The translations under genes and the position numbers were made by a program. Positions 19,072 to 22,267 of a DNA stretch of 64,000 nucleotides are shown one piece after another. Numbering within the stretch: position 1 is the first letter of the stretch; each line of letters begins with the position of its first letter. Under the pieces are notes generated by a model. It was not told the DNA's origin and did not search any database. It was given only the letters and a program-made list of their open reading frames with translations. This stretch comes from SAR324 cluster bacterium. GTDB taxonomy: Bacteria; SAR324; NAC60-12. The DNA lies in contig JADFZZ010000021.1 in the NCBI GenBank assembly GCA_015232315.1, forward strand, positions 2,006 through 66,005, read 5' to 3'.

Positions 19072-19785
19072 TCACTGATTATTAAAGGTGTAACCAAACA
19101 GTTCAATATCAGTCTTAAAATAGTCTTCTACCATTTTTTTTGTTTCAGCATCGTAATACTGCCTGTAGTCTCTGTGTGCGGACTGGTTGATCAACGGCAG
19201 AGTCGCGTTGATCTGAAGTCGCTGGCAAATTTTCTGGAAATCTTGAGTCAGGGATTCATATCGACCTACAAAATCAACAATGATTTTCCCGTCCTGATCA
19301 ATCAGCATATCGTTTTGGAAGGTAGTAGCGCCTTTGGCATAGGGATTTTTAGGCGAGCTGACAATCCACTTGAGATAGTCACCAAAACCGCTCATGGACT
19401 TAACAAGTTCATGGTTGATGTGGTTGGTTTCTTTCATGATAAAATGATACATGGAGACCTGCCAGTCCCAGGGATTTCTGACAAAAGCAAATTTATAAAA
19501 CTGGTTGAAGATCTCCGCGGGCAATTCTTTCTGCGCATCCCCGGCTTTGACGTGAGTCATAAAAGAATCCCACATTTCATAGAAGGGGTTAGGTTTGCCA
19601 TTTATGATTTTCGCGGGGCGCCGGACTTTGAATTTTTCAGGCTCCTGAGCATAATCTTTCAAGGCCTCCTTGATGCTCAGTCCGGCGACTTTGGCGACAT
19701 GAAAAAAAATAAATTTGTGGGTGTAGGATATTAACATAGGGTTTAGGCCGCCGGTTATGTCATAGAGTAGAAGTTTGATCCGCAA
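19072..19785 (-). CDS. Sulfotransferase-family protein.
   Basis: HVAKVAGLSIKEAL resembles the 5'-PSB motif (PKxxGTS class). FAFVRNPWDW resembles the 3'-PB motif (RNPxDR). The start may instead be M17 at 19737. The ORF overlaps the 3' end of the upstream radical SAM gene. Confidence 0.55.
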   Translation of the reverse strand: MRIKLLLYDITGGLNPMLISYTHKFIFFHVAKVAGLSIKEALKDYAQEPEKFKVRRPAKIINGKPNPFYEMWDSFMTHVKAGDAQKELPAEIFNQFYKFAFVRNPWDWQVSMYHFIMKETNHINHELVKSMSGFGDYLKWIVSSPKNPYAKGATTFQNDMLIDQDGKIIVDFVGRYESLTQDFQKICQRLQINATLPLINQSAHRDYRQYYDAETKKMVEDYFKTDIELFGYTFNNQ

Positions 19786-21076
19786 TCGCTATCAACGACT
19801 TGCCAATGCTTTTGCCCACATAATCGCCATGAAGAATGCCTTTAGCCGTCAGTTGGATTTCATCTTTTGAAATGGAAATAAAACCATCTGTTTCCAGTTG
19901 AGTGAGGGCGGACCCACACAAGGATTCCAGTTTAAAACCATATTTTTGAGAGAATTTTTTCAAATCCAGATTGATTAATTTCATTCCCAGCACAACATCC
20001 CGTACCATTTCATCCAAACTGGTCAAATGGTGTCCCCGTTGAATTGGAATTTCTCCGGCTTCCACAATCGAGACATAGGTTTCCAATTCGTTGGTATTTT
20101 GAAACAGCCAATTTCCAAGACGACCAAACGCTGACGCTCCAAAGGGGAAATAATCATCGCCTTTCCAAATACTGGGCGCATGGACATGTTTATAGCGTCC
20201 TTTTTTGGTAAATGTAAAAAAACACCATGGTAAATATTGTGCCTGTTCAAATTGTTCCAGAGCATAACGCATAAACTCCAGTTCCTGCTCATCAGAAGGC
20301 AGTTCCAGTTTTTCGTTACGAACATCCTTGTAATATTGCGTATTGGCATAGAGTTCTGTTTTATAAACGGTGATGCTTTCTATATCCAGACTCAGAGCCT
20401 TTTGGATCGTTTGAGTCCATGTGTCCATGGTTTCGCCCGCCAAACCACTCATCAGGTCAATATTAAGAACAGCATTGGTACTTTTTGCGATATCAATGGC
20501 AGTCAATACTTTTTGGGCGGTATCCTTCCGATTGGATAACTTAATGATATCATCACAGAGGGATTGAACGCCGAGACTGATACGGGTTACTCCGATTTTT
20601 TTCAGGATATCCGCTTTATTCTGCGTTAACGTTACAGGTTCACCTTCAACGGTAAATTCGAAGTTGTTCACGATGTTGAGATTGTTTTGAAGCGTCTCGA
20701 TGATCTGGGTCAATAAATCCCCGTCCATCAGGGTCGGTGTTCCACCACCAAAATAAATCGAGATCACCTGTCTTTCTTTTAAATTAAACTGCTGTGACGC
20801 AAGTTCAATTTCCTTGCAGAGTGCATTGACATATTGTTCCATCTCGGATTTTCGGCCTCCTGTAACCGTCCGATAATAACAATAAGAACATTGCTGGGCA
20901 CAAAAGGGAAGGTGCACATAAATATTGAGTGGCTTGCCTGTCAATATTTTATCCGCCTTCACTTTTTTCCAATGTTGAAAATGGGGATAATTCGTAACAA
21001 AACCTCTTCGAGATGATTCCAAATTAGTGATAAACCCTTTTCTGGCAGTTTGTATCTGTTGTTTTTCTTTGCTCAT
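19760..21076 (-). CDS. Radical SAM enzyme of the HemN-like family (oxygen-independent coproporphyrinogen oxidase-like, or class C radical SAM methyltransferase-like).
   Basis: Motif HLPFCAQQCSYCYY (CxxxCxxC) and a HemN-like C-terminal region. The likely ATG start is at 21076, preceded by AGGAAGG. The track ORF begins at an upstream TTG at 21103. Confidence 0.8.
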   Translation of the reverse strand: MSKEKQQIQTARKGFITNLESSRRGFVTNYPHFQHWKKVKADKILTGKPLNIYVHLPFCAQQCSYCYYRTVTGGRKSEMEQYVNALCKEIELASQQFNLKERQVISIYFGGGTPTLMDGDLLTQIIETLQNNLNIVNNFEFTVEGEPVTLTQNKADILKKIGVTRISLGVQSLCDDIIKLSNRKDTAQKVLTAIDIAKSTNAVLNIDLMSGLAGETMDTWTQTIQKALSLDIESITVYKTELYANTQYYKDVRNEKLELPSDEQELEFMRYALEQFEQAQYLPWCFFTFTKKGRYKHVHAPSIWKGDDYFPFGASAFGRLGNWLFQNTNELETYVSIVEAGEIPIQRGHHLTSLDEMVRDVVLGMKLINLDLKKFSQKYGFKLESLCGSALTQLETDGFISISKDEIQLTAKGILHGDYVGKSIGKSLIAIADQTSTL

Positions 21077-21089
21077 ATTAAGAACCTTC

Positions 21090-21353
21090 CTATTGTTGTA
21101 CAATGGTTTTGGAGGAAATAAAGTCAGCGAGGGTCTTCAAATTTTTGAAGGGTTCCAGGTTCAATTCATTTTCTGAAAACTGAAAATCAAAGTGAGCTTC
21201 GATTAAATTCACAAATTCCATAATCACAACAGAATCCAGTCCAAGTCCTTCTTCAAATAAAGAAACATTCTCATCAATTTCTTCCTGTTTGAGGTTTACA
21301 TCCAAATCATCCGCAATAATCTGTTTCAGTTTGTCAATTATATTTTCAATCAT
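21090..21353 (-). CDS. Stand-alone acyl carrier protein.
   Basis: 87 aa, acidic, with EEGLGLDSVVIMEF (phosphopantetheinylation serine). AAGGA RBS. It lies between a sulfotransferase gene and the radical SAM gene. Confidence 0.8.
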   Translation of the reverse strand: MIENIIDKLKQIIADDLDVNLKQEEIDENVSLFEEGLGLDSVVIMEFVNLIEAHFDFQFSENELNLEPFKNLKTLADFISSKTIVQQ

Positions 21354-21367
21354 ATCTCAATCTTTCC

Positions 21368-22267
21368 TTATGTCAGTTGATATCCGGCTTCGTTGCAAAG
21401 CGCTTCACAAGATTTATTCAGGTGATCTACAATTTCTGAGTCCATTGATGTTTTCCATCCATCAATTTTTCCAGTTCTAAACGTTCGTGATGAAGTGTCA
21501 TAAACTGTTTTCAAACGGTTTTCAACCTCTTTATCAAAGGGAATCCTTAAAAAGGACGCGATTTTTTCTACAGTAATTTTTTGTTGATCAATATCCCCTC
21601 CGCCTTGCTCGCCAACGAGATCCTCAAAACGCATGAATAACGAGTTGGGTTGATTGCGCCAGGCCAACATAGAGCGGTAAACTTCGGCAAAGCTTTTTAT
21701 TTCAACTTTTGCGAGGGGCGCATATCCTCCTTCCAAAATAAAATTCAAGCGTTGCATTGGAGACATTGTCTTAAAATCAGCTTCCAGAAAATGTGACCCC
21801 ATTCCTGTTTTCCATGCGTCTAAAATGAAAGGAAGCAGGGAGGCCACAACAGCACGGGGATCACGTATGATCACCAAATGATGATAAGCCAAATCCGTAA
21901 TCACAGGAGTAATCCCGGGTGTCCAGGGAATATGTCCCTGGATATATCGACCCTTTTGTACGTTATTGAGCCAGAACCGAAAAGTTACCTGATTCACATA
22001 GTAGGGGCTAAAGGCGCCTATCCCGATGTTATCTTCAACCGCATCCGGATCGAATTTCCCTATTTTTAATGATTTATGCGACTCTCTATAATTAAAATAT
22101 CTGGGTGTCCCCAGCCCTGTAGAATCAACCAGCCTTTTTATATAACCACGGTTGGCCGCGTGTTCCGCATACCCGAGAATGTGAATGGCCTTAGTCAACA
22201 GGTGCGTTCCACTTTTGGGTAAAGAATTCACCAATACCCTGCCCTGACTCATTTGTGAAGGAAGCAT
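21368..22267 (-). CDS. Sulfotransferase (PAPS-dependent).
   Basis: 299 aa. Motif LPKSGTHLL (PKSGTT-type 5'-PSB motif). Size and layout are typical of cytosolic or NodH-type sulfotransferases. Confidence 0.7.
   Translation of the reverse strand: MLPSQMSQGRVLVNSLPKSGTHLLTKAIHILGYAEHAANRGYIKRLVDSTGLGTPRYFNYRESHKSLKIGKFDPDAVEDNIGIGAFSPYYVNQVTFRFWLNNVQKGRYIQGHIPWTPGITPVITDLAYHHLVIIRDPRAVVASLLPFILDAWKTGMGSHFLEADFKTMSPMQRLNFILEGGYAPLAKVEIKSFAEVYRSMLAWRNQPNSLFMRFEDLVGEQGGGDIDQQKITVEKIASFLRIPFDKEVENRLKTVYDTSSRTFRTGKIDGWKTSMDSEIVDHLNKSCEALCNEAGYQLT

Follow-up and report, generated by a model that had tools for sequence, protein, structure and literature searches.

A conserved carrier protein, HemN-like radical SAM enzyme and sulfotransferase cassette in a SAR324 cluster bacterium, with a possible role in tailoring a carrier-bound aryl acid

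In the pathways to the phenolic glycolipids (Rv2949c/FadD22/Pks15-1) and to ambigol (Ab5/Ab6/Ab8), 4-hydroxybenzoate (4-HBA) made by a lyase is transferred by a dedicated ligase to a carrier without the use of coenzyme A (CoA), and the ring of ambigol is chlorinated. For the aryl polyenes (APE), ApeH loads 4-HBA directly on an acyl carrier protein, and the ring is methylated afterwards (PMC8253772). [quoted passage not shown] HemN-like enzymes in general use a SAM-derived methylene radical to attack sp2 carbons (PMC10114718). Finally, a sulfotransferase, SwfB (R-ST), is paired with the radical SAM enzyme SwfC in the widespread swf cluster (PMC3908369). Here we describe a gene cassette present on a 64,000 nt stretch of the genome of a SAR324 cluster bacterium (contig JADFZZ010000021.1; below, "the window" refers to this entire stretch). 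The cassette encodes a free acyl/aryl carrier protein (ACP), a HemN-like radical SAM enzyme, two sulfotransferases, a chorismate pyruvate-lyase family protein and an AMP-dependent ligase. We found no literature description of a combination of chorismate-lyase-family protein, ligase, ACP, HemN-like enzyme and sulfotransferase. We conclude, with moderate confidence, that the cassette is a conserved biosynthetic unit for the formation of 4-HBA, its tethering to a carrier, a C1 modification by the HemN-like enzyme, and sulfation.

Gene content and conservation of the cassette

Genes were assigned to families by Pfam and NCBIfam profile searches of the open reading frames (ORFs) of the window against curated cut-offs. 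The start of the HemN-like gene was taken from the public protein P0001 (438 aa) and that of the second sulfotransferase gene from the MLISY start conserved in its orthologues. Nine genes are located on the minus strand from position 22267 down to position 1987, in the order sulfotransferase ST1, ACP, HemN-like enzyme, sulfotransferase ST2, lyase, ligase, synthetase, aminotransferase and reductase. The first of these, ST1, encodes a Sulfotransfer_1-type enzyme of 299 aa (21368-22267; PF00685, 43.6 bits against a cut-off of 22). It is followed by the gene for the free ACP, an 87 aa protein with its phosphopantetheine serine in a GLDS motif (21090-21353; PF00550, 46.9 bits), by that for the 438 aa HemN-like radical SAM enzyme (19760-21076, the longest ORF reaching to 21103; PF04055, 75.4 bits, plus HemN_C PF06969, 30.1 bits), and by ST2, which encodes a Sulfotransfer_2-type enzyme of 221 aa (19072-19737, the longest ORF reaching to 19785; PF03567, 66.8 bits). 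Next come the genes for the 188 aa chorismate pyruvate-lyase family protein (Rv2949c-like/DUF98; 18352-18918; PF01947, 66 bits against a cut-off of 22) and the stand-alone AMP-dependent ligase of 479 aa (16862-18301; PF00501 and PF13193).

The genes are closely spaced. With the starts given above the gaps are 14 nt between ST1 and ACP, 13 nt between ACP and the HemN-like gene, and 22 nt between the latter and ST2; when the longest ORFs are considered instead, two of these junctions become overlaps of 14 and 26 nt. These values agree with the spacing of 13-26 nt or overlap claimed in a preliminary description of this region, and the four minus-strand genes between 22267 and 19072 on which it was centred are real, each of them scoring above the Pfam curated cut-off for the family it was assigned to. 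The gap between ST2 and the lyase gene is 153 nt, and about 50-75 nt precede the ligase and the synthetase genes. A scan of the region 16700-23300 for promoters and terminators returned sites that were no commoner than in shuffled sequence, and was thus uninformative on operon structure.

To delineate the conserved part of this array we compared 15 loci, a small sample consisting of the window and the surroundings of 14 HemN-like homologues, which were scored with the window proteins. Two loci are of SAR324 type (L084, from Deltaproteobacteria bacterium TL4, with 88% identity, and L086), three are from sulfur oxidisers (Beggiatoa alba B18LD, L001; Thioploca, L087; Candidatus Kentrum, L085), and Methylobacter/Methylococcaceae methanotrophs are represented by L002 and L004. 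The other loci are from Desulfobacterales (L088), Kofleriaceae (L005) and metagenome contigs (L089-L092, L096). The ACP and HemN-like genes are linked in all 15 loci, which belong to at least four phyla, and the ACP orthologues of the 14 other loci are 41-84% identical to that of the window. The lyase is present in 12/15 loci (41-74% identity in 11 of the 14 others), and so is an orthologue of the ligase (36-77% identity, again in 11 of the 14). A sulfotransferase of any type was found in 12 loci. In nine of them (eight other than the window) it is an ST2 orthologue with 55-85% identity, and elsewhere Sulfotransfer_3 or Sulfotransfer_1 enzymes are present; for the high-GC (guanine plus cytosine) Kofleriaceae locus L005, Pfam searches of chosen ORFs were uninformative as to sulfotransferase and lyase. 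ST1 is the least conserved member, an orthologue (69% identity) being present only in TL4, one of the 14 other loci. Thus, the core of the cassette consists of five genes, encoding the lyase family protein, the aryl-acid AMP-ligase, the free carrier, the HemN-like enzyme and ST2, to which ST1 was added in the lineage of the window. The four genes of the preliminary description are therefore not the functional unit it had proposed: the conserved unit comprises ACP, HemN-like enzyme, sulfotransferase, lyase family protein and AMP-ligase, and extends through 18918-18352 and 18301-16862.

The order of these genes differs between organisms. It is ligase-ACP-HemN-ST2-lyase in Beggiatoa, ACP-HemN-ST2-lyase-ST2'-ligase in Methylobacter, and ST2-lyase-ligase-ACP-HemN-ST3 in L089. 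TL4 has ST1-ACP-HemN-ST2-lyase-ligase, together with a divergent gene pair discussed below. In L092 the lyase is replaced by a 3-deoxy-D-arabino-heptulosonate 7-phosphate (DAHP) synthase, a 3-dehydroquinate (DHQ)-synthase-like protein and a type II DHQ dehydratase (DHQase II). The variation of gene order across phyla speaks for functional linkage rather than inherited synteny, and the presence of the ACP/HemN-like pair in 15/15 loci in spite of the changing order shows that the arrangement is more than chance. In the Thioploca genome, which is a metagenome-assembled genome (MAG), the ligase is in two frame-shifted pieces (12361-13774) and the ST2 slot (11341-11789) contains only a 25 aa ORF; this reflects either decay of the cassette or assembly errors.

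Part of the cassette probably reaches the cyanobacteria. Homologues of ST2 (P0303, P0304, P0306, P0324, P0343, P0357, P0372) and of the lyase (P0448, P0473, P0481, P0484, P0487, P0508) with 55-64% identity are present in Moorea, Oscillatoria, Dolichospermum, Aphanizomenon (such as UHCC 0183), Scytonema, Nostoc and Gloeothece (such as G. verrucosa). In 14 cases an ST2 and a lyase homologue were reported from contigs of equal size, including a 4179 bp contig of Moorea sp. SIO4E2, which is only a proxy for co-location. These contig sizes had no counterpart among the top 120 HemN-like matches.

Polyketide synthase (PKS) or nonribosomal peptide synthetase (NRPS) genes are located within 10 kb of the cassette in only three of the 15 loci, namely the window, L086 and L088; L090 has in addition an A-PCP-methyltransferase gene at the edge of the locus. 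The idea that the cassette is intrinsically a tailoring set for PKS/NRPS products could therefore not be upheld: 11-12 of the 14 other loci lack PKS/NRPS genes within this distance, and TL4 has the whole cassette and no synthetase. Elsewhere the cassette mostly operates with no assembly line at hand, its neighbours often being a P1B-type ATPase or ATP-binding cassette (ABC) transporters.

Identity of the HemN-like radical SAM enzyme

The HemN-like product of the window is 100% identical to P0001, a protein from a SAR324 MAG that bears the NCBI name HemW. Its scores on the NCBIfam models are 212.8 bits for ChuW (cut-off 400), 207.6 bits for HemW (cut-off 205.4) and 193.9 bits for HemN (cut-off 325). 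Likewise, all 15 aligned members of the family match these three models, with best E-values of 1.5e-65, 3.5e-64 and 2.4e-58. For the true HemW proteins P0159 and P0167, on the other hand, the HemW model (TIGR00539) returns 324 and 352 bits, all other models trailing by 60 bits or more. The public name thus looks like a threshold artefact, since the HemW score is only 2 bits over the cut-off and nearly tied with those for ChuW and HemN.

The conserved motifs point in the same direction. The radical SAM motif of the enzyme is C68xxxC72xxC75-Y-Y, and these three cysteines as well as a GGGTP motif are invariant in the family. A fourth cysteine, in CxxxCxxCxC, is a defining feature of HemN; the family motif, CAQQCSYCYY, lacks it, and the score on the HemN model (TIGR00538) is 131 bits under the cut-off. 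The ChuW/HutW model (TIGR04107) is missed by 187 bits, and none of the 15 loci showed genes for heme transport. True HemW proteins contain CxYCDF and HNxxYW, the family an invariant CSYCYY and, at the position of HNxxYW in an alignment with HemW (A2), HAPSIW. The HemN residues F310/Q311 that bind the second SAM presumably lie in the stretch aligned with HAPSIW, HemN itself standing outside that alignment. In addition, family members are longer at the N-terminus by some 55 residues, which HemW (about 380 aa) does not have. This extension contains the conserved sequence SRRGF(I/V)TNYPxFxxWK, which we take to resemble the PRYTSYPTA region of HemN. The HNxxYW sequence has been named as a HemW motif in the literature (PMC10114718).

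Sequence identity amounts to 24% with E. coli HemN and 26% with ChuW of E. coli O157, and to about 25% with HemN, HemW and ChuW each. In a neighbour-joining tree (no bootstrap values) that had E. coli HemN, HemW and ChuW as its reference set, the family and its sister clusters formed a monophyletic group that included neither the HemW clade nor E. coli HemN or ChuW. When the protein library was clustered at 50% identity, the family formed a single cluster (588 bits); the next full-length clusters were 41-42% identical, followed by a continuum at 36% or below. A generic GGGTP pattern derived from the family alignment retrieved mostly ordinary HemW genes (25-32% identity) from the genome contigs, the only family members being those of L004 and L005, a result that brings out the gap in identity. 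Of 12 family loci, 10 were recovered by a family-specific pattern with a 105-base spacer, which had no match in 78 HemW loci. Judged from sequence comparison, then, the HemN-like protein forms a discrete clade of its own and is not HemW, HemN or ChuW. This answers the phylogenetic question raised by the preliminary description as far as these three enzymes are concerned, and agrees with its view that the protein is neither an enzyme of heme biosynthesis nor a HemW chaperone. The preliminary description had also held that a grouping with the heme enzymes, together with the occurrence of the genes in the absence of any NRPS/PKS, would speak against its reading; such a grouping was not found, and occurrence without NRPS/PKS was, at the level of the locus (10 kb).

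The AlphaFold2 model of the enzyme (mean predicted local distance difference test, pLDDT, 83.6) has HemN (1olt) as its best Foldseek match, with a template modelling (TM) score of 0.78-0.80, all further matches having 0.41 or less. At the sequence level, comparison with the PDB gave 74 bits for NocN, limited to the core (residues 59-249), versus 116 bits for HemN. The enzyme has the features expected of class C enzymes of the NosN type, i.e. PF04055 plus PF06969, C68/C72/C75, GGGTP and, in the predicted model, the full HemN fold. Its genetic context, with an ACP in 15/15 loci and an orthologous ligase in 12/15, is also that of a NosN-type enzyme. The members of this clade, which are named "heme chaperone HemW" or "coproporphyrinogen oxidase", are almost certainly biosynthetic tailoring enzymes.

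A proposed pathway and its alternatives

The partners of the HemN-like enzyme give an indication of its substrate. The PF01947 family, to which the lyase belongs, includes the mycobacterial Rv2949c, which forms p-hydroxybenzoate, and the lyase matches 2nwi in the PDB (E 1e-14); on the equivalog model NF037993 (cyano_chori_ly) it scores 44.7 bits against a cut-off of 175. It is a candidate source of 4-HBA. Among the PDB matches of the ligase, the highest score is that of the adenylation domain of the NRPS gramicidin synthase (77 bits); the next best are aryl-acid ligases, namely 4-chlorobenzoyl-CoA ligase (70 bits), DhbE/EntE and benzoate-CoA ligase, and the protein is a putative aryl acid:ACP ligase. 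The family of the lyase, and its replacement in L092 by DAHP synthase, DHQ-synthase-like protein and DHQase II, indicate that the input of the pathway is a shikimate-derived aromatic acid, most simply 4-HBA. The substrate is therefore probably a shikimate-derived aryl acid and not a polyketide intermediate. An aryl starter unit would also fit the arrangement in L088, where C-PCP and KS-AT-ACP-TE come after the ACP. The window contains a DAHP synthase gene of its own (55104-56258, plus strand), and L092 also has one near its cassette; that of the window may supply extra flux through the shikimate pathway.

Both sulfotransferases are predicted to depend on 3'-phosphoadenosine 5'-phosphosulfate (PAPS), on the basis of their family matches and binding loops. 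The translation of ST1 shows the PAPS-loop-like sequences LPKSGTH and RDPRAVVAS. The orthologues of ST2 contain invariant H-x-x-K/R-x-x-G-x-S and KFAFVRNPWDxxxS motifs, H-V-A-K-V-A-G-L-S being conserved and VRNPxDxxxS invariant. From knowledge of the fold, we take the motifs of both enzymes to be the 5'-phosphosulfate and 3'-phosphate binding loops. Sequence searches of the PDB gave no match for either protein. A second, non-orthologous sulfotransferase is present in L002, L004, L084 and L089, and multiple sulfation is thus a recurrent theme across the loci. These results bear out two further points of the preliminary description. Two different types of sulfotransferase are indeed present (PF00685 and PF03567), and carrier-tethered tailoring plus sulfation is the best reading of the locus.

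Together, these observations suggest the following pathway. The lyase would convert chorismate into 4-HBA, as judged from its family membership. The ligase would then adenylate the acid and load it on the holo-ACP, for which the co-conservation of the two genes and the precedents of APE, phenolic glycolipids and nosiheptide argue. By analogy with NosN, which acts on a NosJ-bound indolic acid, the HemN-like enzyme would consume two SAM molecules, as other class C enzymes do, and transfer a methylene taken from SAM to an sp2 carbon in the aromatic ring of the tethered unit. The product would carry a C-methyl group or else a methylene or hydroxymethyl group that is reactive. We propose for it a role as C1-transferase on a tethered aryl acid because ligase, discrete carrier and HemN-like enzyme correspond to the NosI/NosJ/NosN trio. 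ST2 would sulfate the phenol or the new hydroxymethyl group and ST1 would add a second sulfate, a role that Sulfotransfer_3 or Sulfotransfer_1 enzymes may fill elsewhere. In the last and weakest step, which would concern the genome of the window, the aryl unit, tethered or released, might be joined with the product of the megasynthase, aminotransferase and reductase.

Several observations weigh against this pathway. The lyase is far below the cut-off of the only equivalog model, and its product could differ from 4-HBA. The minimal cassette, for instance that of Beggiatoa alba, is devoid of a thioesterase, hydrolase or condensation enzyme for release and has no counterpart of NosK. The similarity of the HemN-like enzyme to NocN is lower than that to HemN, so that its assignment as a methyltransferase rests on context and not on phylogeny, and HAPSIW replaces HNxxYW in a stretch presumed to hold the second-SAM residues of HemN. 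A ferrochelatase near the cassette in two lineages, and a URO-D family protein in a third, provide a weak hint of a tetrapyrrole connection. Finally, a loading module (A-KR-ACP) is already built into the synthetase, whose C domain is terminal, so that the aryl unit has no obvious point of joining.

As to the product, a bolder reading, less likely than not, is that the cassette makes a so far undescribed class of small, sulfated, C1-modified aromatic metabolites. Its hosts are large sulfur bacteria, methanotrophs, SAR324, sulfate reducers, a myxobacterium and, for part of the cassette, probably cyanobacteria. Sulfation and the class C radical SAM reaction may be linked, a benzylic or aryl sulfate serving, for instance, as the reactive or exported form, and the role of the product might be tied to the CPx-less P1B-type ATPase described below, as in metal handling or signalling at oxic-anoxic interfaces.

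Among the alternatives, the one that survives best retains the tethered substrate and changes the chemistry. Instead of a simple C-methylation of 4-hydroxybenzoyl-ACP, the HemN-like enzyme could catalyse methylene bridging or ester formation, as in the natural reaction of NosN, hydroxymethylation followed by formation of a benzylic sulfate (a quinone-methide precursor), or a ring rearrangement, or it could act on a different shikimate-derived substrate. HemN-like enzymes share the SAM-methylene radical and differ in outcome (PMC10114718), and the family is about equally distant, at some 25% identity, from every characterised member compared. Moreover, the lyase is remote from its equivalog model, L092 uses a different branch of the shikimate pathway, and the linkage of the sulfotransferase, as tight as that of the ACP, suggests that the sulfate is integral to the chemistry. 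However, no positive evidence favours any particular one of these reactions, and methylation of sp2 carbons is the commonest outcome of class C enzymes. We therefore consider such a departure from C-methylation possible but doubtful.

A second proposal would be an addition to the proposed 4-HBA pathway rather than a substitute for it. Divergent from the cassette, the plus strand of the window contains a gene for a membrane-anchored protein of 175 aa (22682-23209; no Pfam or NCBIfam match), 5 nt downstream of which starts the gene for an anaerobic sulfatase-maturating enzyme (anSME; radical SAM/SPASM; 23215-24363; TIGR03942, 404 bits against a cut-off of 349). This is followed by a gene for a Ser-type sulfatase, probably an exported lipoprotein (24716-26593; PF00884, 152 bits), which has SGPSR at residue 116 and a signal/lipobox-like N-terminus. 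The sulfotransferases could mask an exported metabolite that the exported, anSME-matured sulfatase would unmask outside the cell, the "protoxin" logic of sulfation and desulfation put forward in the preliminary description. Both genes are genuine, since the anSME exceeds the equivalog cut-off of its model and the sulfatase has the SGPSR motif and an export-signal-like N-terminus. The pair of 175 aa protein and anSME is kept in TL4 at the same position, divergent from the cassette (7095-8734; 67% and 81% identity), an anSME orthologue (59%) adjoins the cassette of L086, and sulfatases are located within 10 kb in L087 (a 43% homologue, 9 kb from the cassette) and L088. Yet the link with the cassette is suggestive only: counting the window, anSME and sulfatase are each found in 3 of the 15 loci, and TL4 and L086 have the anSME beside the cassette but lack a sulfatase within 10 kb. 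It is equally conceivable that the sulfatase serves to scavenge sulfate esters from the environment, and the TL4 pair raises the possibility that the neighbouring sulfatase is not the client of the anSME, or not its only one. We regard the masking scheme as unlikely; of the earlier proposal the two enzymes stand, and their tie to the cassette does not go beyond a suggestion.

The last three genes of the minus-strand array bear on a further explanation. They encode a hybrid megasynthase of 4085 aa (4551-16808; Pfam domain order A-KR-ACP / KS-AT-DH-KR-cMT-ACP / C), a class III aminotransferase located 36 nt further on (3165-4514; PF00202, 316 bits) and a stand-alone thioester-reductase-type NAD_binding_4 protein whose gene overlaps the aminotransferase stop by 4 nt (1987-3168; PF07993, 215 bits). 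The terminal C domain carries HHIVMD and is apparently active. The N-terminal part of about 190 aa resembles the C-terminal subdomain of an adenylation domain (…LPLTDDGQLD…) and precedes the A-KR-ACP module (residues 195-1382), an arrangement also met in modules that activate alpha-keto acids and give alpha-hydroxyacyl starters. One could speculate that the reductase and aminotransferase provide an amine acceptor. According to the further explanation, it is the polyketide chain, and not an aryl acid, on which the HemN-like enzyme and the sulfotransferases act, for example by cyclopropanation or methylation of an enoyl-ACP of the Jaw5/C10P type and by CurM-type sulfation of a beta-hydroxyacyl-ACP to create a leaving group. 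The DH and KR domains would make enoyl and hydroxyacyl intermediates, and HemN-like cyclopropanases acting on ACP-bound substrates are known (PMC10114718). Nevertheless, this is very improbable, since at least 11 of the 14 other loci, including TL4 and the Beggiatoa alba chromosome, have the orthologous ACP/HemN-like/ST2 set and no PKS within 10 kb of it, and since the set is accompanied by a chorismate-lyase-family protein and a ligase of aryl type. The GC content of the synthetase genes is 0.47-0.50 and that of the cassette 0.40; over longer stretches it is 0.46-0.50 for the synthetase block (window positions 1-18000) versus about 0.40 for the cassette and sulfatase region (18000-34000). This difference, and the absence of a synthetase from TL4, suggest separate origins, the cassette being the older part to which the lineage of the window has added the assembly line.

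Least of all, finally, do we credit the possibility that the gene encodes a HemW chaperone or HemN coproporphyrinogen dehydrogenase with unrelated neighbours, for which the NCBI name with its marginal HemW score, the ferrochelatase or URO-D genes nearby in three lineages and the best structural match (HemN) would plead, and which is largely refuted by the far higher scores and different motifs of true HemW proteins, the N-terminal extension, the margins by which the HemN and ChuW models are missed, the separate position in the tree, and a linkage to ACP in 15/15 loci that heme metabolism does not explain.

Neighbouring genes and comparison with known systems

Of the further genes of the window, one that recurs directly beside the cassette elsewhere encodes a P1B-type ATPase of about 690 aa (48800-50863, minus strand; TIGR01525, 378 bits against a cut-off of 346), a possible accessory gene, which reads MVSCNFMETT where a CPx motif is expected. 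Homologues with 40-49% identity adjoin the cassette in L002 (14613-16709), L004 (about 14865), L085 (15646-19821), L087 (14413-16419) and L090 (17285-19450), and the ATPase may be functionally tied to the product of the cassette. Three other minus-strand features are also possible accessory genes: that for a 436 aa protein without a family (28319-29629), of which a 42% homologue follows an ABC exporter in L089, that for a DUF697 protein (32491-33120), with homologues beside the cassette in L086 and L088, and a pair of cyclic-peptide-type ABC exporter genes (37690-40882), with a 31-33% homologue in L089. The plus strand (42845-48619) encodes another set of the "acid to aldehyde to amine" kind, made up of an A-PCP-reductase of 1085 aa that resembles carboxylic acid reductases, a second class III aminotransferase, and a 373 aa protein that belongs to no named family and has a 33% homologue in L087. 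A 497 aa leucine-rich-repeat protein is encoded directly after the sulfatase (26743-28236, plus strand), and an IS4/5-family transposase at 53284-54162 (minus strand). Genes related to tetrapyrrole metabolism were noted at other loci: a ferrochelatase gene is located directly upstream of the ACP gene in Methylobacter (8297-9265 in L002/L003) and 8 kb from the cassette in TL4 (19373-20470), and a URO-D family gene lies upstream in L090 (5395-6528). Their proximity could be a coincidence or a faint tetrapyrrole connection.

These results have several implications. They correct a systematic mis-annotation of the HemN-like clade. Because the compact five-gene cassette is present in cultured strains such as Beggiatoa alba B18LD (8215-12735 in L001) and in Methylobacter (9713-14596 in L002), its chemistry can be tested without recourse to uncultured SAR324 bacteria. 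If the proposed pathway is correct, the pairing of radical SAM enzyme and sulfotransferase joins the known ways to tailor carrier-bound aryl acids. The product may matter at redox gradients, the cassette being found in sulfur oxidisers, methanotrophs and SAR324, often by a metal-pump-like ATPase. For the window itself, our data suggest that the cassette is the older element and that the PKS/NRPS was added to it specifically in this lineage.

Two described clusters were considered as possible counterparts and rejected. The idea that the Methylobacter locus is the tundrenone cluster was dropped, as the tundrenone paper mentions no sulfotransferase, radical SAM or chorismate enzyme. The sponge-symbiont swf cluster, which combines a PKS, an R-ST and a radical SAM enzyme, differs from the cassette, its radical SAM enzyme being B12-dependent and its architecture different.

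The closest resemblance is to NosI/NosJ/NosN, with which the cassette shares a stand-alone AMP-ligase, a discrete carrier and a HemN-like class C enzyme, co-conserved in the cassette. There are five differences. The acid of the cassette would come from a chorismate-lyase-family enzyme and that of the Nos system from NosL; the cassette lacks a NosK-type release enzyme; its sulfotransferase is integral and has no Nos counterpart; and similarity to the NosN homologue NocN (PDB 9p2u) is low; and the cassette is located mostly outside larger natural-product clusters. With Rv2949c/FadD22, ApeH/ApeE/ApeB and the ambigol system it has in common a lyase of PF01947/UbiC type, a ligase and a carrier, and also that the ring would be tailored and may prime a PKS. 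These mycobacterial, APE and ambigol systems, however, use ordinary SAM methyltransferases or halogenases and have neither a radical SAM enzyme nor a sulfotransferase, and for the cassette a PKS is optional. As in HemN, HemW and ChuW/HutW, the full-length HemN fold, CxxxCxxC, GGGTP and HemN_C are present, but the context is one of carrier, ligase and sulfotransferase and not of heme uptake or synthesis. PAPS-type sulfation coupled to carrier-protein chemistry is also a feature of the CurM ST-TE and of swf. SwfC, however, is a B12-dependent (class B) enzyme and SwfB is fused to a reductase, whereas the sulfotransferases of the cassette are free-standing; the ST of CurM acts on a beta-hydroxyacyl chain, whereas the substrate of the cassette is likely an aryl unit. 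Compared with AtsB-type anSME and Ser-type sulfatases the pair of the window is ordinary, and noteworthy only for its position and for the maturase being kept without the sulfatase in TL4 and L086. In summary, the tailoring logic is already known from the Nos, APE, phenolic glycolipid and ambigol systems, and the fold is that of HemN. What is new is that a distinct HemN-like clade is constantly paired with a sulfotransferase for action on what would be a chorismate-derived unit, that this pairing is widely distributed outside classical natural-product clusters, and that heme annotations have concealed it.

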